64,000 nucleotides of DNA. It comes from a virus (Duplodnaviria; Caudoviricetes). Location: positions 1 to 64,000 of IMG/VR virus record IMGVR_UViG_3300037067_020597, one strand, 5' to 3'. Below the pieces are notes generated by a model. The model worked only from the letters and a program-made list of their open reading frames with translations, made no database searches and was not told the DNA's origin. Shown in pieces: positions 1 through 14,005 of this stretch. A program made the position numbers and the translations under genes. The stretch's first letter is position 1; each line of letters opens with the position of its first letter.

Positions 1-417
1 ATTGATTTACCAGCTAATTGGAAATCACCTTTCTCATACACTGATGTTGGTGACATACAGCTTCAAGTTGGTTGCTTAGATGAGGGAATGACCCAAATCA
101 TTTGGCCAGGTACTGCCGCTACTCCGACTCCAGTTTATACATGTCAGACGGCTGATGTAGTCGATGGCCCCGGTTTGATTGCTCAAGAGAATTGTCCTAT
201 AAGCTGGTTAATTACAGACAAATCGACTCAGACTGAATATTTATCCAGACAAAAAAGCGACACGAGCAAGTCATTATCGTCGATTGGTGATCTATCCTTT
301 TCCTTTGAAGGGACTTCGGGAGCGATTACAGTAAGTGCTAATATCAATACGGCGAGATTGAATTGTTGTTTAGGGTACAGAGTGACTGTTTCTGTTACGG
401 CGAGTGAGATAAAGTAA
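1..417 (+). CDS. 5'-truncated Cys-rich virion/fibre protein (C-terminal part)
   Basis: Frame 1 is open from base 1 (IDLPANWKSPF...) to TAA at 417. It shares CP[IV]SW...FS[FY].G..G...CCLGY with the next gene. Confidence 0.7.
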   Translation: MDLPANWKSPFSYTDVGDIQLQVGCLDEGMTQIIWPGTAATPTPVYTCQTADVVDGPGLIAQENCPISWLITDKSTQTEYLSRQKSDTSKSLSSIGDLSFSFEGTSGAITVSANINTARLNCCLGYRVTVSVTASEIK

Positions 418-426
418 AACAGGTGT

Positions 427-3204
427 TTGATGAATTGCCATGCATTAAATAACCGATCCAACATTACAGACGGTACTATCGTTATAGATAGTAATGGCAA
501 TCAATGGCAGTATGATTCCAAATTGAACACATGGACCTGTATAGGAACTTTTATCGCTGCACCGATTGTCACAGAAGATCAGAACGGTCTAATTTCTCCT
601 GAGATCTTCACACGTATCAACGCAATAACAGAAGCGGTCGACGATGGGTTGAAATTTGACTTTCTGAAAATTTATCCTAATCTATCCGGATATTATTATT
701 TATTTCAATCGTCAAATTACACAATTTCATTTGAGCCTGAATCAAGCCATGATTTGCGAATAGAGATTAATCGCCCTAGATTATTGGCGCTGCTATCACA
801 ATTAAAATGCCCTGGAGAACAAGGGTTAGAAGGAGAACAAGGCAATCAAGGTGCTAATGGAACTCCAGGAGAATCTGAAGCAAAATACGCTGCTACAATA
901 GAAGACAATGCTCTAGTAATTGACGCATCTGCTCAATCGACGATAGATACACCGATCTCACTGAGATTATTTAAAAACAACTCATCTAAAAGTTCATTAA
1001 CAATATTGCAGCCAATAGATGGTGAACCGTTTGCCATAGTTTATTCAGAAGTTGTTTTAGAAGACGGGTCGTTTTTGAACTATGATATTGCTACTGCTAC
1101 ATTATCTGGTAGACTAATATCAAACGATTGGTCGACAAATAATTGGTATTATAAGGCTAATGAAATTGGCCGAAAAGGTCCATCGGGTAATGAAGGTTCT
1201 GGTTTTTTTCAAATAATCAATAATAATCTTGTAGATGATACAGTCGAGGCCACGAAAGCAGTCATATCATTACGATATGATGGATTAAAATCAGATATTT
1301 ATTATTTTGATGACACTTTATTTGTTAATAATTGCGTATCCAAACTGGCTATTTTACATGCGTGTGCTACGACAGCCGTTGAGTCTCTTAAAACTGTTGA
1401 TGACTTATCTCTTGCAGCTGTAAGGCCAACTACCAGCACATGTAAAGATATAGTTCGATATCAGTTTGAGGAGAAACAGCACATAGCACCCGAATTGCAG
1501 TTTGTTGAATGGACACCGGTCAGTGCATGTTGGACCAAGAATCAATTTAGACAATTCAATTGGAAAGATTATACACCAGCATCAATTGTAGCGTGGAGAC
1601 AAGCAAATTCAGACACAAATGCTGATTCACGTTATCCATGGATGATAATTGAACCGCAATTTCCAGGGCAGCGGTGTTGTCAAGAGGATTTCTTTTTCTG
1701 TTCGAATGTGAATGATGTTAGTGGCGGCTGCCCTGTTTTAGTTGTTGAGCCGATTACACCATCAATCACTGAAATTTGTTGCCCATGTGATTGTCCAAGC
1801 TATTTAGATACGAGCCTTGAAATCGATATTCCTTACAATTCTGATACATCTAGTAATCCGACATGCCAAGGATTTGAATGCGTTATAAATGGAACTCTGC
1901 AGCACTATGATGTAACAGTTAATGTGCCATCCACTATTACAGGAGATGTCACAATTACTTTCAGCAGCCTATTTAATTATATATGTGAAGAGGCTAGATA
2001 TATCAGTAGTGCTTCTTGTCCTGATTATCCTAATACTGGTTCATGTCCTGTTTCTTGGTCTGCAGTTTGCACGAATGATAACTCACTTGGAGGGAAGCAA
2101 TATTCTACAATTGGATCGCCGATCGTATTTTCATATTCTGGCCCTAAAGGAGTAGCTTTAAAATTCGCGCTTGATATCAACCTTGAAGGGGCCGATTGTT
2201 GTCTTGGTTATTCAGTTCTTGCTTGTGCTTATGGCCCTACAACACGGCCTGGGGCTACGGGAGCAACAGGAGCTCCAGGAGCAACAGGAGCAACGGGTGC
2301 AACAGGAGCAACGGGTGCAACAGGTACACCGCCAATTCCAAATCCGCCGCTGCCGCCATCGCCATCACTACCGCCGCCGCCAATATGGCCGCCTCCGTTG
2401 CCGCCGCTGCCGCCGATAGTACCACCAGAAAAACCGCCCGGACCTCTTCCGTCCTATCCACCTGGTCCATATCCACCAGAAATATGCCCTGGTGATTGTA
2501 TGTGGTTTATGTCTCCTGGTGGCGGCGACTGGAGTTTAGTAAGAAACCAATGCACTCCTGGTTGTTACTGTCCACCGCCTGATTATTATACTGTTGTAAC
2601 ACCTTACGGTGGAGGCTGGGTTGCATATACAAGATGTCGGCCTGGAACACCATCACCGTCGCCATCGCCGTCTCAGGGGTATCCATCACCTGTGTATCCG
2701 TCTTCATCGCCGTCGCCTTCACCATCACCATCGCCTTCACCATCACTATCGCCTTCACAGATTTGTACATCTTCAGTTTCCGGTGTCATTGATACCGACT
2801 CTTATGGCTGGCAACCAGCAGCACATATCAGCGGCTCCAGTATAACTTGTACATTCAAGTACGAAGATTCGGAGAATTGTGGCGGTCCTAATGGGAACAT
2901 TCAGAGTGGAGAGTGCGTGTGTACTGTGACATTCGAGACATCTGCACATGTCTCCTATTCAATCAGCGGCGTATCAGAGAAATTTAATTCCGGATACGAC
3001 TATTTTACTATTTATCGTGATGGTGCAATGAAAGCACAGGTATCATCATCAAATGAATTGATTGAATGCGAGATGCTCAGCGTATCAGATGATGCTAATG
3101 AAGATTTGCCTCCCGGAACATATACATTTAGATTCGTGGCGGATACTGGAGACAATCGATACCATGTCAATATGACTCATACTGGAACAGTCTCATGGAG
3201 TTAA
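427..3204 (+). CDS. Cys-rich virion fibre/decoration protein with collagen, poly-Pro and Ser-Pro tracts
   Basis: 925 aa ORF with GEQGLEGEQGNQGANG and (GAT)n collagen repeats, a PPPP tract and SPSPSPSPSL; AGGTG SD upstream. Confidence 0.7.
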   Translation: MMNCHALNNRSNITDGTIVIDSNGNQWQYDSKLNTWTCIGTFIAAPIVTEDQNGLISPEIFTRINAITEAVDDGLKFDFLKIYPNLSGYYYLFQSSNYTISFEPESSHDLRIEINRPRLLALLSQLKCPGEQGLEGEQGNQGANGTPGESEAKYAATIEDNALVIDASAQSTIDTPISLRLFKNNSSKSSLTILQPIDGEPFAIVYSEVVLEDGSFLNYDIATATLSGRLISNDWSTNNWYYKANEIGRKGPSGNEGSGFFQIINNNLVDDTVEATKAVISLRYDGLKSDIYYFDDTLFVNNCVSKLAILHACATTAVESLKTVDDLSLAAVRPTTSTCKDIVRYQFEEKQHIAPELQFVEWTPVSACWTKNQFRQFNWKDYTPASIVAWRQANSDTNADSRYPWMIIEPQFPGQRCCQEDFFFCSNVNDVSGGCPVLVVEPITPSITEICCPCDCPSYLDTSLEIDIPYNSDTSSNPTCQGFECVINGTLQHYDVTVNVPSTITGDVTITFSSLFNYICEEARYISSASCPDYPNTGSCPVSWSAVCTNDNSLGGKQYSTIGSPIVFSYSGPKGVALKFALDINLEGADCCLGYSVLACAYGPTTRPGATGATGAPGATGATGATGATGATGTPPIPNPPLPPSPSLPPPPIWPPPLPPLPPIVPPEKPPGPLPSYPPGPYPPEICPGDCMWFMSPGGGDWSLVRNQCTPGCYCPPPDYYTVVTPYGGGWVAYTRCRPGTPSPSPSPSQGYPSPVYPSSSPSPSPSPSPSPSLSPSQICTSSVSGVIDTDSYGWQPAAHISGSSITCTFKYEDSENCGGPNGNIQSGECVCTVTFETSAHVSYSISGVSEKFNSGYDYFTIYRDGAMKAQVSSSNELIECEMLSVSDDANEDLPPGTYTFRFVADTGDNRYHVNMTHTGTVSWS
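2245..2760 (+). repeat. Coding low-complexity tract: (Gly-Ala-Thr)n, poly-Pro, (Ser-Pro)n
   Basis: Direct translation; the repeat units are codon multiples. Confidence 0.9.
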
Positions 3205-3205
3205 A

Positions 3206-3409
3206 ATGAATTGCAAACTTACGACAGTATTTAAGCCTGGAAGAGGTGGCGATGGCGTTTATGAGCACACATGCTCAGAATGTGGTAAAATATGGATCTC
3301 GGCAGAGCCTAATATCATTGCCACTTGTAAATTATCTAATTCTGAAGAGTCTAAGGCCGACACAGAAGTAAAGGTAATAACATCTTGTGGCGGCTGTGAA
3401 GATACTTAA
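3206..3409 (+). CDS. Small Cys-rich protein
   Basis: 67 aa with CSECG and CGGC; tightly coupled to the upstream gene. Confidence 0.6.
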   Translation: MNCKLTTVFKPGRGGDGVYEHTCSECGKIWISAEPNIIATCKLSNSEESKADTEVKVITSCGGCEDT

Positions 3410-3449
3410 TTCTTAAATATATCTGCTGTATCTAAAGTTGTGGTGAGTC

Positions 3450-4094
3450 ATGATCAAATCACTATACAAAATACATGACAATAAAACGATTGCTGTCGTC
3501 GGATCTGGTCCAACGGCAGTTGATTTTTTACATAGCAGTGCTGATATCTCGATTGGTGTGAATGGCGCAGCTAAACTAGGTAAAAAATTCGATTATTTTA
3601 TGTGTGGTGACGTTCGTTCGTCGTCCTATGACTGGTTTGAAGTTGATTGCTCTAGAGTTAGAATTATAGCGAAGCTAACTGCATCGCTTGATAAGATTCT
3701 CTATCCATTAGATATCTTTCCAGATATAGAGCGAGCTGCAGTTATCACTACTAAACAGCATACGTTGAACTTGCCGGTACCAATTGAACCACATTTGACC
3801 TTTGTGTATAAATGGCATAAGCCAGGCAGGCTGCAGCAGGATATGAATTTTTTGATGTTTGGAGGTACCATAAGCTGTTGCGCTGTCCAGCTTGCCTATA
3901 TCATGGGTGCTTCTAAGATCGTGCTTTATGGTTGCAATTTCACCAGCAGAGGCAAGCATTATTTTTATAGTACGAGAAGACCTGGATCGATCTCTGATAG
4001 CCAACGAACAGTAATGAATACAGTAATTAATGAAGTTAAAGAGCGAGGGGTACAAATTCAGATTATTGGAGAAACGACACTAAATCCCACTTAG
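3450..4094 (+). CDS. Maf/DUF115 (MptE-like) glycosyltransferase-like protein
   Basis: IAVVGSGPT...IGVNGA...DYFMCGD...TISCCAVQLAYIMGASKIVLYGCNF motif order. Confidence 0.7.
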   Translation: MIKSLYKIHDNKTIAVVGSGPTAVDFLHSSADISIGVNGAAKLGKKFDYFMCGDVRSSSYDWFEVDCSRVRIIAKLTASLDKILYPLDIFPDIERAAVITTKQHTLNLPVPIEPHLTFVYKWHKPGRLQQDMNFLMFGGTISCCAVQLAYIMGASKIVLYGCNFTSRGKHYFYSTRRPGSISDSQRTVMNTVINEVKERGVQIQIIGETTLNPT

Positions 4095-5615: not shown

Positions 5616-5945
5616 ATGGACATTGTGGCACTTTTAATTGCATCAGTGGCCTTGATTGTTTCTTTGTTGGCATTGGTACTCGTAGTGTTAATCTACCGGG
5701 AACTTGTAAGGGATTCCTTTGCTAATCGCGACATGGAAAGATCGGCTTCGCAAGCTGCCCCCGGAGCAAATTCCAGAGGACAAGAATCTTCAACGAGAGT
5801 TGTTGATGCCTCCGAGCAGCCCGTTTCCTCTTCATTTTGCCATGCGCCAGATTTGGCCCCCGAAGTGCTCGCACCGTCACTCGGAAAACCCCCAATCCCC
5901 AAAGGTGGCTTTGGAACAAGAGTTGTTAAAAAACGTGGCGGATGA
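5616..5945 (+). CDS. Membrane-anchored hypothetical protein
   Basis: N-terminal hydrophobic helix followed by a low-complexity tail. Confidence 0.6.
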   Translation: MDIVALLIASVALIVSLLALVLVVLIYRELVRDSFANRDMERSASQAAPGANSRGQESSTRVVDASEQPVSSSFCHAPDLAPEVLAPSLGKPPIPKGGFGTRVVKKRGG

Positions 5946-6009
5946 AGAATTAGAGGAATCAATTTTTGTATTTGGATTAGGTGATGACTGCACAATCAGG
6001 AGAGTGGCA

Positions 6010-7080
6010 ATGAACGCAATAGGAATTGATATTGGAACTAAGAATATTGTTGTATCATTTCGCCACAACAAAAAGCTTGTGTTCCTGAAAGAAATCAACG
6101 GTTATTATCTTATACCAAGGCCCAGCAAGTTTGTAGAAAATATGCTGGATGACCCAAACAAGGTGCGTTCTGATGGGACGAAACGACCAGCAAAATGGAT
6201 ACGTCTAGAAGGACAAGATGGCATATATGTTTTGGGGAGAGATGCAGAAGAGCTGGCTTATGCTCATAACGATACACTATTACGGCCAATGGCCGAAGGA
6301 GGCGTTGCTGCAGATGAAGCCGCTTTAATGGTTCTTTCAAGTATAGTCCAGGGCTTGTTATCGATGTCCGAGCATGATGCTGGTGAATTCGAGCCCGAAG
6401 TAAAATTATGCTATTGCACGACAGCTAAGGCGCTTAATCGTGGCATTAATATTGACTACCATCAGCAAGTAGTCAATCTTATAATTTCTGGATATGAAAC
6501 TGAATCGACTATTACAACTACTTCGATCAAGGAGTCGCATGCTCTTGTTCTTAAAGAAACACCTGACGCTACCGGCATTGGAATTTCGTGGGGAGCCGGA
6601 ACTGTGACAGTTAGTTATGTTCTCTGGGGCAATGAAATTTATTCGTTTAGTTGGGTTGGTGCTGGGGATTGGATTGATACTGAGGTTGCCAAACGGCATG
6701 GTTATGATCCAGAATCGCCGCGTAAGAAATCATCTGAGACGCCTACAACTGTCTGCAGAGCAAAAGAAAAGATTGATTTAACGCAGAATTATACATCAAG
6801 ATTAGAATTGGATATTATACTGCATTATCGTATCCTAATTCAGAATGTTATCCGTGGTATTGTTCAAGGTTTCATCGATCATGAAACCAGTGCCCGTATT
6901 GATAAACCGATTGACGTGTTTATGGCCGGTGGTACAGCGTCTCCGCTTGGGTTTGAAGAAATGGTGGCTCAGTTATTCCAAGAGGAAAAACCGCCATTTG
7001 CAGTCAACAAAATAAAAAGATGCAAAGATCCATTATTTGCTGTCGCAGAGGGTTGTTTGATTGCGGCAGAATCTACGTAA
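6010..7080 (+). CDS. Actin-fold (MreB/ParM/FtsA-like) ATPase
   Basis: Phosphate-1 GIDIGTKN, phosphate-2-like GISWGAGT, adenosine motif MAGGTA. The start at 6010 has an AGGAG SD; the longer track start at 5719 overlaps the upstream gene. Confidence 0.8.
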   Translation: MNAIGIDIGTKNIVVSFRHNKKLVFLKEINGYYLIPRPSKFVENMLDDPNKVRSDGTKRPAKWIRLEGQDGIYVLGRDAEELAYAHNDTLLRPMAEGGVAADEAALMVLSSIVQGLLSMSEHDAGEFEPEVKLCYCTTAKALNRGINIDYHQQVVNLIISGYETESTITTTSIKESHALVLKETPDATGIGISWGAGTVTVSYVLWGNEIYSFSWVGAGDWIDTEVAKRHGYDPESPRKKSSETPTTVCRAKEKIDLTQNYTSRLELDIILHYRILIQNVIRGIVQGFIDHETSARIDKPIDVFMAGGTASPLGFEEMVAQLFQEEKPPFAVNKIKRCKDPLFAVAEGCLIAAEST

Positions 7081-7149
7081 AATCAAAAATATACACTAGT
7101 CATTACAGGCTTATGTTCAAGCAAAATTCAGGGAGAAGGAGACATTGTT

Positions 7150-7329
7150 ATGCCTAGATTTGATGGTACTGGTCCCCAGGGTGCTGGTCCTAGAACTGGT
7201 CGGGGTTTAGGACCCTGTGGGCAAGGTTCAACTGGCCAAGGTCGTGGATTGGGTCAAGGTCGTGGATTGGGCTTAGGCCGTCGATTTGGTGGCGGTGGTG
7301 GTCGTTCTCAACCAACTCCGAAACGATAA
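7150..7329 (+). CDS. DUF5320-like Gly/Arg-rich small protein (not in ORF track)
   Basis: Hand translation gives MPRFDGTGPQGAGPRTGRGLGPCGQG...GRGLGLGRRFGGG (59 aa), with a strong GGAGAAGGAG SD. Confidence 0.8.
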   Translation: MPRFDGTGPQGAGPRTGRGLGPCGQGSTGQGRGLGQGRGLGLGRRFGGGGGRSQPTPKR

Positions 7330-7360
7330 CTGAGCGGTCCAGAATCGTATTTGACGGAGT

Positions 7361-8926
7361 ATGATCGTTGAAGAAAAAGAAATCGGACCTGATCAATATA
7401 GTGGACCTAGTGAATTTGTCCACCTTCATCTACACACATTAGCATCTACTCTAGATGGCGTTCCTTCAGCGGAACAATATGCTGATGCTTGTTTAAAGGC
7501 TGGCTTTCCAGCGATGGCTGCTACAGAGCATGGCCATATGGCCTCTTTTCCCGACATATATTTCGCATTCAAGAAGAGAAAATTGAAAGGAGTTGCTGGC
7601 GCGGAGATATATTATAATGACTATGAGCCATTGCGTAAAAAGGCGGAAGAGAAAGGTATCAAGCGTGATTCTTTGCCTGATAAATTGAAGCAGCGCATAA
7701 TGCGTAATCGTCATCTCACAGTTTTGGCGAAGAACTCTATTGGTGTTTCCAATCTTATCAAATTGACGACGCTTGCCTGGGAACATTCTTATATTGGGAA
7801 GCCACGTATATGGTTCGATCGGCTATGTGAGTTTAAAGAAGGTTTAATTGTTTTATCGGGATGCATAAATGGTCCAATATCATATGAACTTCGTTTGGAT
7901 ATTGATAGCAAAAACGACACCGGTAGGAGTTATTCGCGCAGCAAGGCCGATAAGACTGCATTAACATATTTAAAGGAATTTAAGGATGCATTTGGTGAAG
8001 ACTTTTTTATTGAAGTGCAGATGCCATGTCTTCCGGAGCTTCATGATACTGAGTTGTTCAGAACTTTAATTGAATATGCCGATGCTTACAGTGTGAAGCC
8101 TGTTCTCTCTAATGATGTTCACTATCTTACTAAGGATGACGCATATATCCAGCGCGTGATGATGGCTGTTGATCAGAAAACCAACGTCAATGATAAAAAT
8201 ATGTTTACTTCTCAGAGTGATGAACAATATTTTAAATCTCGTGCTCAATTGTGGGCTACATTCAAAAATCATGGTTATGCAGAAGGAGTCAGTGATGCAA
8301 AGTTTGAAGAAATATGTGATAACACATTATTGATAGCAGATCGGTGTGAAGTGCTATCGCCGGACATGTCGCCCAAGATTCCCGATTGGTCTGCTGTGGA
8401 AAAAGGTGTCAATGCAAATGCTCGATTGCGTGAGATTGTTTATGAGCAGCTTAAATTGCGAGGTTGGGATAAAGATACAAAGAAATGGCCGTGTGATGGT
8501 CGAATGGTGACTTACGCTGAGCAAGCAGAGATAGAGTTGGAAAGATTCATCGATAAGGGATTTTCTAGCTACTTCCTCATTACAAGAGATTGGATTCAAT
8601 GGGGAAGAGAAAAAGGTTGGCCTTTTGGGCCAAGAGGATGTACTATTCCAAACTCTTTGATATTAGTCGGTCCAGGTGTGCAGAAAAAGATAGAAGATCT
8701 CACAATAGGCGATGAAATAATAGATGGCTTTAGCAATAAACAAACTATCGAGAATAAGTTCATCTACGATATATCAGAGGAGTTATATGTATTTGAGCTT
8801 GACGATGGTGAGATTACTGTTACAGCAGATCATAAGTTTTATGTAATAAGAGATGGTGTGGTTGTGCTGCTACCAGCATCCGAAATCAAATCTACAGATG
8901 AGTTCATTGGTAATTTGCAGGACTAA
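7361..8926 (+). CDS. dnaE: DNA polymerase III alpha, N-terminal piece (PHP domain) ending in the N-half of a split intein
   Basis: FVHLHLHT, TEHG, HLTVLAKN, SGCING, NDVHY and ELERFIDKGFSSYFL...GPRG, followed by the intein start CTIPNS. Confidence 0.92.
   Translation: MIVEEKEIGPDQYSGPSEFVHLHLHTLASTLDGVPSAEQYADACLKAGFPAMAATEHGHMASFPDIYFAFKKRKLKGVAGAEIYYNDYEPLRKKAEEKGIKRDSLPDKLKQRIMRNRHLTVLAKNSIGVSNLIKLTTLAWEHSYIGKPRIWFDRLCEFKEGLIVLSGCINGPISYELRLDIDSKNDTGRSYSRSKADKTALTYLKEFKDAFGEDFFIEVQMPCLPELHDTELFRTLIEYADAYSVKPVLSNDVHYLTKDDAYIQRVMMAVDQKTNVNDKNMFTSQSDEQYFKSRAQLWATFKNHGYAEGVSDAKFEEICDNTLLIADRCEVLSPDMSPKIPDWSAVEKGVNANARLREIVYEQLKLRGWDKDTKKWPCDGRMVTYAEQAEIELERFIDKGFSSYFLITRDWIQWGREKGWPFGPRGCTIPNSLILVGPGVQKKIEDLTIGDEIIDGFSNKQTIENKFIYDISEELYVFELDDGEITVTADHKFYVIRDGVVVLLPASEIKSTDEFIGNLQD
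8639..8923 (+). mobile_element. Split intein N-fragment (95 aa)
   Basis: Block A Cys1 (CTIPNSLI), KIEDLTIGDEI, block B TVTADHKF, PASEIKSTDEF, then a stop codon. Confidence 0.88.
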
Positions 8927-8936
8927 AGAGCCATCC

Positions 8937-9947
8937 GTGAAGATATTCAAGGTAGAGTATTATTGTGAAAAATGTGGTGCGAAATGTTCTACTACCAATC
9001 ATAATCTACGATATAGAACGCATCATAAGGGCGAACATATATGTCAAAAATGTCTGATAAAACTTGAGAAGTCAAGGGGTCTTTTTGACGCCTTACCTAG
9101 TTGTTATCATTATCAGGTTTTTCTTGGTTGTGTAGAATACCAATTGGCAATACAATATTTGGTCGGGATATATTCGAAAATACTTATTAAATTTAACTGT
9201 CGACAATGTGGTTGCGAATGTATTATCAGATGGTCCAAAATGGCAGACAGAAAATATTATAAGTATGACAATGTATGTTCAAGCTGTCTAAATTATCTAA
9301 TACAAAATGATCCGGGTAAAATAGCCATAAATCAAGCAAATTCAAAGGCATTATGGTGTGATGCTAGTTATAGGCGCAAGTGTTTGAAAGCATTTGAGTT
9401 GCATAATAAGAATATGCAACTCAATACAGCATACGCGCATAAGCATCGCAGAAGGAGTAGATCGGTCGAGGGTTTTATCGAAATCAATGGGCAGTCGATA
9501 AGATTTGATAGCGCTTTTGAGTTGATATTTTTATGGCAAGTGAGGAATAAATACCAGAAGATCCGTAGATGCAATTTCGCTATTGCATATAGTAGTCATT
9601 TTTATCATCCTGATTTCTTGGTTATCGGGCCTGATGGATATAAGTCGATCATAGAGATAAAGGGATTCTATAAAAGTAACATATCTGAGAAACAAGAGGC
9701 AGCAGAAAAGTATATAGCTGAGACAGGAATCGCAGATTCTTATATTTTGTACGATACTGAATTGTTGTTATCTGAGGGTATTTTACGGGGCGTTGGTGGT
9801 GCTCACATGTGGAAACAGATCAGAGAGATCAATAATGAAACAACTGTTACCTTCACAAGTGAAGAACATAAGCGAATTGCAGAAATTGGTCGATCAAGGT
9901 TCCGTAGAGAGACTAAAAACAAAAAAGATATCAAAACGACAATATAG
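8937..9947 (+). mobile_element. Free-standing PD-(D/E)xK (TnsA-like) homing endonuclease with Zn-finger repeats
   Basis: CxxC repeats followed by FDSAFE...YHPDFLV...IIEIKG. GTG start at 8937, just after the IntN stop; sits between the two intein halves. Confidence 0.75.
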
Positions 9948-10152
9948 CGGTAAAGTGTATGATTTACAGGTAAGCAATACTAATTCATATAGATTGAACG
10001 GTATCTTTAGTTCTAATTCTGCAGCCGGATCGCTTGTATGTTACTTGCTCGGCATTCACAATGTTAATTCATTGGCCTGGGAATTGTCTTTTGATCGCTT
10101 TTTGGCTAGCTCTCGTGGTGGGTATTTATTGAAGGTCAAGGTTGAAGGTTAA
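9835..10152 (+). CDS. dnaE: Split intein C-fragment plus a 44-aa DnaE extein
   Basis: KVYDLQV...NGIFSSN|SAAGSLVCYLLGI...LSFDRFL. The start is uncertain (ATG 9835 or TTG 9793) and overlaps the end of the endonuclease. Confidence 0.85.
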   Translation: MKQLLPSQVKNISELQKLVDQGSVERLKTKKISKRQYSGKVYDLQVSNTNSYRLNGIFSSNSAAGSLVCYLLGIHNVNSLAWELSFDRFLASSRGGYLLKVKVEG

Positions 10153-10599
10153 ATGACAGACATATATACACACGCACTAAGGTCGCTGCATGCAGCAATG
10201 ACCGATCACTTGCTCCTCATTGGTGAGCCATGTCCATTGCTTGGTCGGCTTAATATGCGACTTATCGAATTGGTTGGTTGTCTGCCTCCTGGTAATTCCG
10301 ACCATGCTAACAGCATATATAGGCTAGCTGCGATAACGCTTGAAGCGACAATACTCAGCGTGATAGATAGGCTGAAAGGATTCACGGATGAGCACAATAG
10401 TTTAGAATTGCGAACGAAGGCTATTGCTAGTATACAAAGTGCTACAGATTGCATTAAAGTGACGGAACCAATCACTGTTCCAGAACGCTGTACTGCATTT
10501 TTTAATATTCTTGGAGTTGTGATGACGCAACTAAAGGATATTACAGGGACGGAGTATCCTCGACTTACTGATGGTGAAGGTAAAGTAATCGGGAACTGA
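10153..10599 (+). CDS. Hypothetical protein
   Basis: 148 aa ORF in operon context. Confidence 0.6.
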   Translation: MTDIYTHALRSLHAAMTDHLLLIGEPCPLLGRLNMRLIELVGCLPPGNSDHANSIYRLAAITLEATILSVIDRLKGFTDEHNSLELRTKAIASIQSATDCIKVTEPITVPERCTAFFNILGVVMTQLKDITGTEYPRLTDGEGKVIGN

Positions 10600-10601
10600 C
10601 A

Positions 10602-11090
10602 ATGATTACAATATATGCATGTGGTTATACTATTGATAATGGGAAGCCCACGCAGCGTGGTGCTTGCGCTGCCAGTTTGGAGCATTACGATTCCAGCAAT
10701 CGTAAGGCAGTTCGAGTTGTTAGTGAGCCAGTCGGTAATAGCACAGGGCCGCAATGCGATATCAAGGGGGCAATACTTGGGTTGATGAGCATCAATGCGA
10801 GTCCAGTATTGCAATTTAGAAAAGCGCCTGTAAATCTCTATGCATCTAAGTATGTTGCACAACTTTTAGAGTGTGGAGATGACGGCCGATTCAAAGCAAC
10901 ACCAAAGAAAAATGCAGAGTTGGTTCGTCGTTTACGAGAAAAGGTGAGCTTGTTTGAGAATCTAACGGTATATGTTGGTACGAAAGAACAACTCCAGCAA
11001 CCTTTGGATATATCAAAGACAGCTGTTAATTCTGGTCTTCATAGCGATACTGGTACTTTGGTTTTGCACACAGATACTCTGGTTGTATAA
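10602..11090 (+). CDS. RNase HI-fold protein, catalytic residues degenerate
   Basis: ITIYACG...RGACAASL...STGPQCDIKGAILGL...NLYASKYV follows the RNase HI motif order. Confidence 0.55.
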   Translation: MITIYACGYTIDNGKPTQRGACAASLEHYDSSNRKAVRVVSEPVGNSTGPQCDIKGAILGLMSINASPVLQFRKAPVNLYASKYVAQLLECGDDGRFKATPKKNAELVRRLREKVSLFENLTVYVGTKEQLQQPLDISKTAVNSGLHSDTGTLVLHTDTLVV

Positions 11091-13895
11091 ATGGGAAAGT
11101 ACGATTTCAAGACTATTGTAGAGGCTGCATATAAAAAGCTTGAAAAGCTTCAGAAGTCAGAAATATATCGCAAGCGGCTGGATTTTGAAATAAATCAAAT
11201 AATGCAGCAAGGAGCGGAACGATATTACGAAGATATAATTGAAGGAAATCGTAAATTTGATAAGAATCCAAACCAGTTGCTATTGCCGTGGCTTTTGAGT
11301 CGATTTACAGGCGATGCTAATATAGATCCCATTGCAAATAGAGAAGGGCCGTTGGTACTAAGTGCTAAGTATGATGATATACAAGAAATTATTAGGAAAA
11401 CCGGAAAATTGCCTTCTGATATAAGGCAAGATGATGATAAGCCTGATATTGATATCGATTGTTTGCCAGAAGCCAGAGATCAAATAAAAGGGTATCTGGC
11501 AAAGCGGTATGGTACTCACAATGTTGCGAGTGTTGGCACATGGCAAGCCTATCTCTTTAAACAAGCCATTGCTGATGCTTATTCTGCTCTTGGGTTTGAA
11601 GATGCCGATCGTAGCGCCGGTGCTAAAGTTCGATCGATTGAACTGACAAAGATGCTGCCTGATGACGTCAATGAAATGCGTGAAGGTGGTTTCGGATCAT
11701 GTAAGGGTCGTATAAGAGATGATAATGGTCCTGAGAGAGAATGTGGATTTAGACATAAGGAGTTACAATGCCCTCAATGTGGCAGTACTGATACTGATAC
11801 GCCCACCATTGCGATGATCATGCGTGATTATCCAGAGATTGGCCAGTTTATTGAAGAAGATAAAGAAAATCGTCAAGAAGTTATTGATATTGCTATCCGT
11901 TTGGTTGGCCGCATTAAACATGCCGGAAAGCATGCAGGTGGTGTTATAATTGCTGATCGTGATTTATTTGGTAATGTACCGATGCAATATGATAGCAAGA
12001 GCGGGCAATGGGTTAGCATTTGGACAGAAGGCCGTAATACACAGCTATCGAAGTTTGGATACATTAAATGGGATGTTCTAGGACTTAAAAACTTGTCATA
12101 TATCAAAACAGCGTGTGAGATGATTCGAGAAAATCATGGTATCACATTTGGTGATCGATTGGAGGGATGGGAAGAGTCAAGTCCTATTGACGATATTGCT
12201 GGCTATTATTGGAAAGATGGTGAAAAGATTCCAATTTCATTAAATGATCCGGCAGCACTTAAATTAGCGAATGATTCATTAACCGACAGTATTTTTCAGT
12301 TTGACACTGAACTTGCTAAACGAACATTATCATCTGGGGTTCGTACTTTTCGCGACTTGTTGATTTTTAATGCTATGGGACATCCAGGCCCCATGCAAAG
12401 TATACCTGATTACGTCAAGAACCGTGACGATCCGTCTAATAGTTGGGCTAAAGGCGAGCATAAAGATATCGTTGAAATCTTGAAGCCAACTAGTGGAGTC
12501 ATTGTGTTTCAAGAACAGCTAACTTCGATTTGGCAGCGTATCGCTGGATTTACAGGTCCGGAATCTCAGGACGCTAGGAAAGCTGTTGCGAAGAAATGGA
12601 AAGAAAAGCTGAAGCCAGTTAGAGAACATTGGCTAGCCGGTGCAGGTAAGAAAATCGGCGAATCGAAAGCGGCGGCTTATTGGGACAAAATGGAGACATT
12701 TGGTCGCTATGCTTTTAATGCCAGCCATGCTATTTGCTATTGTTTGTGGGCATATCGTTGTTTATGGCTAAAGGCTCACTATCCAGAAGAATGGTGGGCG
12801 AGCGTAATGGGCTTATGTGATCAAAAAGCTCTTGAAAGATATATGTCTGCTGCTCGTAGTGAAGGGGTTGAATTCGGTGAGATTAATACAACGAAGCTCA
12901 CATTGCGACCGACTGCTCATTCAGGTCAAGACGCCGAACACAAGCACATAGCACTTGGTTTGACAAGCTTGAAAAAGATTGGGGACAAAGCGGCTGAGGC
13001 TTTTGTTGATTCGGTTAGCGGAAATACTTATACTGATATCGATAATTTTATAACTAAAAAGGGTAAAAGCAAAATACTTTTCGAGCGTCTAATAAAGTTA
13101 GGTGCATTTTCTAAGATACACCCCAATAAGCGTGCAACATGGATGTGGTATCTGCATGAATATGGCACAGGAAATGTAGAGGAATTTGAATTTGATGGCG
13201 TTGATGAAGAAGCTAGAGCAGAAGTAGCTGCATCCAAGGCTGCACAGCTGGTTAAAAAATCAAAGTTGAAAGAATTTAGCCATCCGATCAAGATTCTAAA
13301 AGCCTATCATCTTCGCCGGTTATTTGCAGAATCTAAATGGACGGAAGAGACTATTCAGGATGAGCGAAATCGCCAAGAAGCTGAGTATAGGCGATTGTAC
13401 CCAAAAAGGAAGAAAATACCAGCTAAAATAACGAATTGGAAACCAGAAATCAAAGTCACTCGTGAAGCTATAATGGCTATATATCCGGAAGACTATGGCT
13501 TTGATCAATTATTAAGATTTGAAAAAGAATTCTTAGGATATCATTGGCATTCACCGATAGATCTATATCGTGTCAGCGGAGATCATACAGTCGACAAAGC
13601 CAAAGTCAATGACTGTGTGGAGGGTGTAATAGTAGAAGTCACTCAAGCTAAAACGAAGCGTAATTCTGACTTCCTGCGCATCACTGTTTCTGACGGGCGT
13701 AAGAGATGTCTTGTGTTGGTTTGGGAACAGGATATGAAGAATCAGGCTAAGAAATATCTGCAACCTGATAAAGGAGTTAGAATCAGGGTTGATTATGATA
13801 AGGATCGCGGTAGCTTCACTTTAAAAAGAGGAACAGTCATTGAACCTCTTTGGTCTAAGGCAGCATGGCAGAAATTACAGGCTGATGCTGAGTAA
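11091..13895 (+). CDS. dnaE: DNA polymerase III alpha, C-terminal piece (palm, fingers, OB fold)
   Basis: PDIDID, GKHAGGVII, KWDVLGLKNL, VFQEQ, YAFNASH, EKEFLGY and a C-terminal OB-like region. Confidence 0.93.
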   Translation: MGKYDFKTIVEAAYKKLEKLQKSEIYRKRLDFEINQIMQQGAERYYEDIIEGNRKFDKNPNQLLLPWLLSRFTGDANIDPIANREGPLVLSAKYDDIQEIIRKTGKLPSDIRQDDDKPDIDIDCLPEARDQIKGYLAKRYGTHNVASVGTWQAYLFKQAIADAYSALGFEDADRSAGAKVRSIELTKMLPDDVNEMREGGFGSCKGRIRDDNGPERECGFRHKELQCPQCGSTDTDTPTIAMIMRDYPEIGQFIEEDKENRQEVIDIAIRLVGRIKHAGKHAGGVIIADRDLFGNVPMQYDSKSGQWVSIWTEGRNTQLSKFGYIKWDVLGLKNLSYIKTACEMIRENHGITFGDRLEGWEESSPIDDIAGYYWKDGEKIPISLNDPAALKLANDSLTDSIFQFDTELAKRTLSSGVRTFRDLLIFNAMGHPGPMQSIPDYVKNRDDPSNSWAKGEHKDIVEILKPTSGVIVFQEQLTSIWQRIAGFTGPESQDARKAVAKKWKEKLKPVREHWLAGAGKKIGESKAAAYWDKMETFGRYAFNASHAICYCLWAYRCLWLKAHYPEEWWASVMGLCDQKALERYMSAARSEGVEFGEINTTKLTLRPTAHSGQDAEHKHIALGLTSLKKIGDKAAEAFVDSVSGNTYTDIDNFITKKGKSKILFERLIKLGAFSKIHPNKRATWMWYLHEYGTGNVEEFEFDGVDEEARAEVAASKAAQLVKKSKLKEFSHPIKILKAYHLRRLFAESKWTEETIQDERNRQEAEYRRLYPKRKKIPAKITNWKPEIKVTREAIMAIYPEDYGFDQLLRFEKEFLGYHWHSPIDLYRVSGDHTVDKAKVNDCVEGVIVEVTQAKTKRNSDFLRITVSDGRKRCLVLVWEQDMKNQAKKYLQPDKGVRIRVDYDKDRGSFTLKRGTVIEPLWSKAAWQKLQADAE

Positions 13896-14005
13896 TAAGC
13901 TGCATTCTAATGTTTAGCCGAAGATGTACTATTCGGCATTCTGCGTAACCAAACATAATAGGGATGATGGTGTGTTCCTATCTGAACCAAGGCAGCTGAC
14001 AGGCT

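Follow-up and report, generated by a model that had tools for sequence, protein, structure and literature searches.

Fractured genes, in which a split intein divides a gene and a free-standing endonuclease gene lies between its halves, were described by Dassa, London, Stoddard, Schueler-Furman and Pietrokovski in 2009 (PMC2677866). That paper reports 26 fractured loci. Three are dnaE loci from metagenomes of oceans and lakes (DnaE-1, DnaE-2 and DnaE-3), each at a different site. It describes the endonucleases as GIY-YIG or Vsr-like, with an RNA hairpin that masks the start upstream of 15 of the 16 endonuclease starts examined. On the basis of I-Bth0305I (PMC3239194), the Vsr-like nucleases later received the name EDxHD, and a 2025 survey of actinophages lists LAGLIDADG, HNH, GIY-YIG, Vsr-like and endonuclease VII-like nucleases as intein-associated types. 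Here we analyzed a dnaE locus in the first 64,000 nucleotides (nt) of IMG/VR virus record IMGVR_UViG_3300037067_020597 (Duplodnaviria; Caudoviricetes). This stretch is henceforth referred to as the window. The complete record has 74,962 bp and a CheckV completeness of 21%. Since its relatives occur on contigs of 234-388 kb, it probably represents one piece of a very large phage. We estimate a probability of roughly 85% that the front dnaE gene of this large uncultured phage is a genuine fractured gene. Its GRG|SAAGS nucleotidyltransferase motif (the bar marks the insertion point) is interrupted, on this reading by a mobile element that consists of a split class 1 intein and a free-standing homing-endonuclease gene.

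The locus had been brought up in an earlier note, which a model made from the letters of the window and a list of its open reading frames (ORFs). That note read the GPRG|SAAGS motif of DnaE as interrupted by a naturally split intein. It described a 95-amino-acid (aa) N-terminal half (IntN) with C1 and TADH that ends at a stop at 8926, a 336-aa PD-(D/E)xK ORF in another frame, and a C-terminal half (IntC) in a third frame. IntC was said to overlap the end of the endonuclease and to close on SSN|S, with a penultimate Ser and a Ser at +1. We recovered each of these parts (Table 1). The host gene is present at one locus in two ORFs on the same strand (7361-8926 and 9835-10152), and the locus encodes three products: the N-extein joined to IntN (521 aa), the nuclease (336 aa), and IntC joined to the 44-aa C-extein (105 aa). 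The N-extein has Pfam matches to PHP (1e-31) and to profile positions 3-67 of DNA_pol3_alpha. The insert (8639-10017) measures 1379 nt, which is no multiple of 3, and 908 nt separate the two intein halves. There are 46 stops downstream in the IntN frame and 26 upstream in the IntC frame, and the ORF at 8937-9947 is open in its own frame only. The nuclease gene and the IntC ORF overlap by 113 nt in different frames.

Table 1. Coordinates of the fractured dnaE locus and of the genes that follow it in the window
Feature	Position	Strand	Description
N-extein, front dnaE gene	7361..8638	+	426 aa; PHP and first part of the Pol III alpha palm; ends ...GPRG
IntN	8639..8926	+	95 aa (8639-8923) and stop (8924-8926); Cys1 = TGT 8639-8641; block B TADH
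Free-standing candidate homing endonuclease gene	8937..9947	+	336 aa; GTG start; second frame
IntC	9835..10017	+	61 aa from conserved ATG/Met; third frame; block F Asp; SSN end (10015-10017)
C-extein	10018..10152	+	44 aa from Ser+1 (10018-10020); SAAGS 'GS' motif region of palm; stop 10150-10152
Gene X	10153..10599	+	148 aa; between both dnaE genes in all relatives
Gene Y	10602..11090	+	162 aa; RNase H fold; conserved between both dnaE genes
Back dnaE gene	11091..13895	+	934 aa; ~115-aa clade-specific head, PDIDID catalytic motif, rest of palm, fingers, helix-hairpin-helix, OB

Evidence that the interruption is an inserted element comes from related loci. We searched IMG/VR with the back dnaE gene, which returned eight loci (L001-L008), and collected further alleles via the polymerase or via the nuclease. 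L001 is 95% identical to the window in the back gene, and its front gene is a single, uninterrupted gene of 472 aa. When the insert is removed, the joined exteins of the window fit L001 without a gap at the junction (~85% identity overall), and the interruption is therefore not due to chance. The nucleotide alignment to L001 ends at 8637 and restarts at 10020. The element is thus a discrete insert, placed where the Gly codon of GRG|SAAGS meets the Ser codon.

Seven other independent alleles share the site, the order of the parts and both +1 frame steps (L007, which is the contig of L016; L009/L010; L011; L012; L017; L018; and L019). In L019 (3474-3930), the nuclease gene lacks its first 196 codons, and with them both zinc ribbons, and IntN and IntC are intact. 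The remaining nuclease codons are open and 68% identical to those of the window. Intact halves beside an N-terminally shortened nuclease indicate that the intein halves are kept for their own sake. In a tree of the back gene, the window, where the element is present, is sister to L001, where it is absent, and L007, which has it, pairs with L004, which does not. Together with the observed divergence, this tree would fit repeated loss and old gains of the element alike.

The two halves together make up one intein. The Pfam Intein_splicing profile matches IntN over profile positions 9-93 and IntC over positions 114-155. The two matches complement each other within a single domain, and the 75-kb record has no further intein match. 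IntN matches an intein in the Protein Data Bank (PDB; 9hth_A, E 2e-6), and IntC is in register with the Npu DnaE intein structure 4kl5 in what is a weak alignment. The residue set of a class 1 intein is complete and constant across the eight alleles: C1, TADH in block B, the Asp of block F (VYD), the terminal Asn and Ser+1. Invariant residues further include P4 and T-x-D-H-K in IntN, and Y-G-x-V-x-D, TN-Y-LNG and SSN|S in IntC. The length of IntC is 61-62 aa from a conserved Met in all eight alleles; that of IntN is 95-109 aa, with tails past the last conserved strand, and stop positions, that vary.

We compared the window with L007 to assess selection, using the proportions of nonsynonymous (pN) and synonymous (pS) differences. 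Synonymous sites are saturated (pS 0.78-0.82) and pN is low in every part of the locus, with pN/pS values of 0.167/0.776 for IntN, 0.137/0.815 for IntC, 0.21/0.79 for the nuclease and 0.164/0.80 for the N-extein. Purifying selection on the two halves of the intein and on the nuclease is as strong as on the polymerase. The layout proposed in the earlier note, a split intein with a free-standing endonuclease, is thus borne out by an exact empty site, seven further alleles and purifying selection on the halves, and the locus is probably functional.

The nuclease begins with two CxxC..CxxC zinc ribbons, followed by the PD-(D/E)xK core and a C-terminal helical part. It has 22 relatives at 42-65% identity, none of which has an assigned name, and the family alignment is invariant at the zinc-ribbon cysteines, E195, YHPD226F and E240-x-K242. 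A Foldseek search with an AlphaFold (AF2) model (mean predicted local distance difference test score 89) placed TnsA at the top (E 2e-4) and Bax1 next. Re-alignment to TnsA (1f1z) gave Z 8.6 and a root-mean-square deviation of 3.5 Å over 126 residues (model residues 171-305), and the next family was VRR-NUC (6.2). Weak Pfam matches were obtained to Tn7_TnsA-like_N and DUF790, and the nuclease profile matched Bax1 only among PDB sequences (8gy8, E 0.006). Vsr and I-Bth0305I (3r3p) were not among the profile matches in the PDB at E up to 10, nor were they among the listed Foldseek and structural matches, an absence that would still be compatible with a relationship in fold. Judged by its motifs and its predicted structure, the nuclease has a canonical, TnsA-like PD-(D/E)xK core. 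It is not of the GIY-YIG type, and its motif is not Vsr-like.

At E ≤ 0.001, the nuclease family comprises 266 of 1.84 billion representative proteins (8 at E ≤ 1e-30), and a tblastn search of the GenBank phage collection with the nuclease gave no match. We inspected six neighborhoods of nuclease relatives, to E of about 1e-25, and all six nucleases lie between intein-bearing pieces of dnaE. A 254-aa nuclease with PD..ExK, 29% identical to that of the window, lies in a fractured ribonucleotide reductase (class II-like; L020:1855-5367), between the halves of a split intein with HN|C at the end of IntC. We tentatively propose that the nuclease founds an undescribed family of intein-associated homing endonucleases, although we would not call this probable. 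The family would combine two zinc ribbons with a TnsA-like core and would apparently be specialized for split-intein gaps in phage dnaE, with distant relatives in fractured ribonucleotide reductase. If this proposal is true, it would be a third nuclease type of fractured genes, beside those of the GIY-YIG and the Vsr-like kind. The nuclease family is the part of the locus most likely to be undescribed.

Several points weigh against a splicing, homing element. Those that concern mobility come from the comparison with L007 and L001. The divergence of the intein between the window and L007 equals that of the host gene, and there is no sign that transfer was recent. Around the junction, the identity to L001 or L007 also shows no local change that would mark a co-conversion tract. 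A stem over AAGAG/GTG at the nuclease start has a z of -1.58, and 18 of 200 shuffled sequences fold equally well. Splicing activity, the cleavage and specificity of the nuclease, and homing itself are properties that we infer from the observations above. The lack of a co-conversion tract and of signs of recent transfer favors the rival explanation that the middle ORF encodes a nuclease that is no homing endonuclease, but a domesticated repair or anti-competitor nuclease residing in the gap. The fold class (TnsA, Bax1 and VRR-NUC) does include many non-homing nucleases. Against it, the nuclease lies between IntN and IntC in eight out of eight alleles, close to where the Npu DnaE intein is split, and the element is present or absent as a whole. 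The relatives examined are all in fractured dnaE, with the one distant relative in the fractured ribonucleotide reductase. The shortened nuclease of L019 would, on our analysis, fit the step after nuclease decay in the published homing model. We therefore regard a non-homing role as unlikely, although it is the best of the alternatives.

Other points concern splicing. The penultimate His is absent and replaced by Ser in eight out of eight alleles, and the block F His of Npu pairs with an Asn here, in the weak alignment to 4kl5. The two halves of the window are oppositely charged (net charge -12 for IntN and +7 for IntC), but this acidic/basic complementarity is not universal, as the halves of L009 have charges of -3 and -5. 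We considered charge complementarity as a general feature and rejected it because it holds in the window and fails in some alleles. The missing His residues would suit halves that no longer splice and merely hold the 426-aa and 44-aa pieces of the polymerase together non-covalently. However, such a clamp would have no need of the splicing residues (Cys1, Thr and His of block B, Asp of block F, the final Asn and Ser+1), which are all invariant in eight alleles with saturated synonymous sites. The Npu DnaE intein, which is active, also has Ser before its terminal Asn (...ASN), so that a penultimate His is not strictly required. A non-splicing clamp is on balance still less likely than a nuclease without a homing role.

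We also considered that a contiguous intein with an in-frame nuclease domain was broken by two false indels during assembly or sequencing. The nuclease frame is also open over the neighboring frames at 8853-8926 and 9793-9947, and two indels could in principle fuse all three ORFs. The same two frame steps are, however, found in at least seven other assemblies from different samples, with nuclease identities of 42-65%. Because the IntN tails and stops differ in position across this number of samples, a shared sequencing error is ruled out. In addition, the start codons of the nuclease and IntC are conserved, and no fused intein-nuclease form was found among longer proteins, which is weak evidence. 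We consider an artifact highly improbable. It is just as improbable that the front dnaE gene is decaying and dispensable and the element junk in a pseudogene, as nothing specific favors this beyond the ~115-aa head of the back gene, whereas purifying selection on the exteins is strong (pN 0.16 vs pS 0.80) and the front gene is intact in all relatives and carries the PHP domain and conserved GS motif that the back gene lacks.

The earlier note had further suggested that the intein pair is new and is needed for polymerase assembly. This stands for the front subunit and not for the whole of DnaE, and the pair is new only as an allele. From the gene content of the locus, splicing would rebuild the front subunit alone (470 aa; PHP and GS motif). 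The C-extein aligns to residues 425-458 of Taq Pol III alpha and to the end of the L001 gene. It stops several residues short of the catalytic PDIDxDF motif, which is found ~115 residues into the gene at 11091. The back gene has Pfam matches to DNA_pol3_alpha, DNA_pol3_finger and HHH_6 and is conserved in L001-L008. The order front dnaE, gene X, gene Y, back dnaE is common to all eight IMG/VR relatives, which makes the second break an old gene split and not an intein; no intein match was detected across it (10100-11430). As DnaE is a two-gene protein in every relative, the intein would be needed for the front subunit and not for joining the whole polymerase.

We propose the following mechanism for the fractured gene. 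The operon would be transcribed as one unit and would yield three proteins from three frames. IntN and IntC would then associate and trans-splice via Cys1, Thr and His of block B, Asp of block F, the last Asn and Ser+1, and the product would be a seamless 470-aa DnaE front subunit that contains PHP as well as the GS motif. The spliced subunit would work with the separate 934-aa back subunit, which carries the catalytic Asp-x-Asp, so that the polymerase would be a two-chain enzyme. During co-infection, the nuclease may cut intein-less alleles at GRG|S, and repair would copy the whole element into them (homing). We searched 7000-14000 against Rfam at E ≤ 1 and found no match to an intron at either break, and no promoter, terminator or regulatory hairpin scored above shuffled sequence.

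The second break falls between FL..R and PDIDID (window 10100-11430; L013:2837-6437; L014:1961-5933). The gp038/gp039 split of Cellulophaga phage phi13:1 has the same position. In Bacillus phage G, gp329 also ends there, and the GIY-YIG endonuclease gene gp330 comes next. This looks like a recurrent break point beside the catalytic aspartates. The ~115-aa head of the back gene (11091-11435) is highly conserved in the clade. We rejected the idea that it is a degenerate duplication of the tail of the front gene, because a profile-profile comparison gave a probability of 0.4% (E 0.17, 32 columns). Gene Y has a structural match in the Atlas to RNase H families (TM 0.79), and by eye its usual first acidic residue reads Cys (IYACG). 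Gene Y may encode an RNase H-like protein that is inactive and partners the polymerase. Gene X had no Pfam, PHROG or Atlas match. Among GenBank phages, the N-extein reached 31% identity at most, and a blastn search with the insert gave no match.

We note that dnaE is an intein hot spot in the phage group of the window. A second fractured split intein lies in the back dnaE gene at PMQ|S in three of the related loci (L006:4648-9497, L007:5148-9497 and L008:3468-8317). The nuclease genes at that site are unlike that of the window: in L006 the product is 567 aa with a treble-clef zinc finger match, and in L007 it is 416 aa with a weak TnsA-like match. In the window, the PMQ|S site is uninterrupted (about 12396-12401; Q436|S437 of the 934-aa protein). 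L018 has another split-intein break in the back gene (5617-8008), after ..YAFNK and four residues from the cyanobacterial DnaE split site, with a nuclease-like ORF that begins beyond it. According to precomputed Pfam annotations, L009 also carries contiguous LAGLIDADG-type inteins in the PHP and finger regions of the front and back dnaE genes (52-4026 and 7172-8969).

Protein-ligation tools are built on natural split inteins, and any new pair from nature may prove orthogonal to Npu and gp41-1. The window and the seven other natural alleles, all with Ser at +1 and Gly at -1, offer ready variation for the residues that determine how fast and with which partner an intein reacts. As for the nuclease, it may turn out to be a compact PD-(D/E)xK enzyme that its zinc ribbons guide to a long target. 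The loci also form a natural series of the homing cycle, with empty (L001), full (the window, L007 and others) and nuclease-truncated (L019) states. Finally, they suggest that the active site of Pol III alpha can be built from two polypeptides, one of which would first be stitched together by an intein in the GS motif.

We compared the locus with the closest described systems. The cyanobacterial split DnaE inteins (Npu and Ssp) are likewise natural split class 1 inteins in Pol III alpha with Cys1, and Npu has the same Ser before the terminal Asn. Their halves are encoded at separate loci, with Cys at +1 and an IntC of ~36 aa, whereas the halves in the window are adjacent, with the nuclease gene between them, Ser at +1 and an IntC of 61 aa. 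Their insertion site (..Y|CFNKSH) reads YAFNASH in the window and is uninterrupted within 11091-13895, as the earlier note had observed. The comparison with known intein alleles that it called for shows a site other than the cyanobacterial one, but the site is not new. Contiguous inteins lie at the same GRG|S position, with Cys1 and Ser+1 as in the window, in gp329 of Bacillus phage G and in ORF57 of Methanobacterium virus PhiF1. IntN aligns from Cys1 to these inteins (E 8e-6 for phage G and 5e-6 for PhiF1), and IntC with its extein is 47% identical to phage G. The inteins of phage G and PhiF1 differ in being single in-frame inserts of ~250-400 aa that end in HN, are unsplit and have no separate nuclease gene in a gap.

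For the nuclease, the closest structure is that of TnsA, which serves the Tn7 transposase as its endonuclease subunit. It leads the next family by more than 2 Z units and has the same E/D/K catalytic pattern. Sequence identity to TnsA is 16%, TnsA lacks zinc ribbons, and the nuclease of the window resides in an intein gap at a locus without transposon partners. Like I-Bth0305I and the EDxHD type (PMC3239194), it is a two-part protein tied to fractured genes, in which a DNA-binding region at the N-terminus precedes a nuclease core that belongs to the restriction-endonuclease superfamily. It differs from them in its zinc ribbons. Unlike EDxHD, it also has no conserved His at the position of Vsr His69 (seven residues after E240, where S, N, D or T is found) and has Lys242 instead of Asp/His chemistry. 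A canonical PD-(D/E)xK type is not in the lists of intein-associated nucleases given in the 2025 actinophage survey or in Dassa et al. 2009 (PMC2677866).

The arrangement as a whole is that of the loci described in Dassa et al. 2009 (PMC2677866). That such a layout is known from phage metagenomes, fractured dnaE included, agrees with what the earlier note had stated. In both cases a replication gene is present in two ORFs at one locus, IntN ends the N-terminal piece, IntC starts the C-terminal piece, and the gap between them holds a free-standing endonuclease gene that has a start and a stop of its own, with overlapping frames and a phage-like origin. The window departs from the described loci in its nuclease, which has a canonical E..PD..ExK and TnsA as best match. 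The locus is a well-supported new and well-populated allele of a known arrangement, which we compared with DnaE-1, DnaE-2 and DnaE-3 through their published description.

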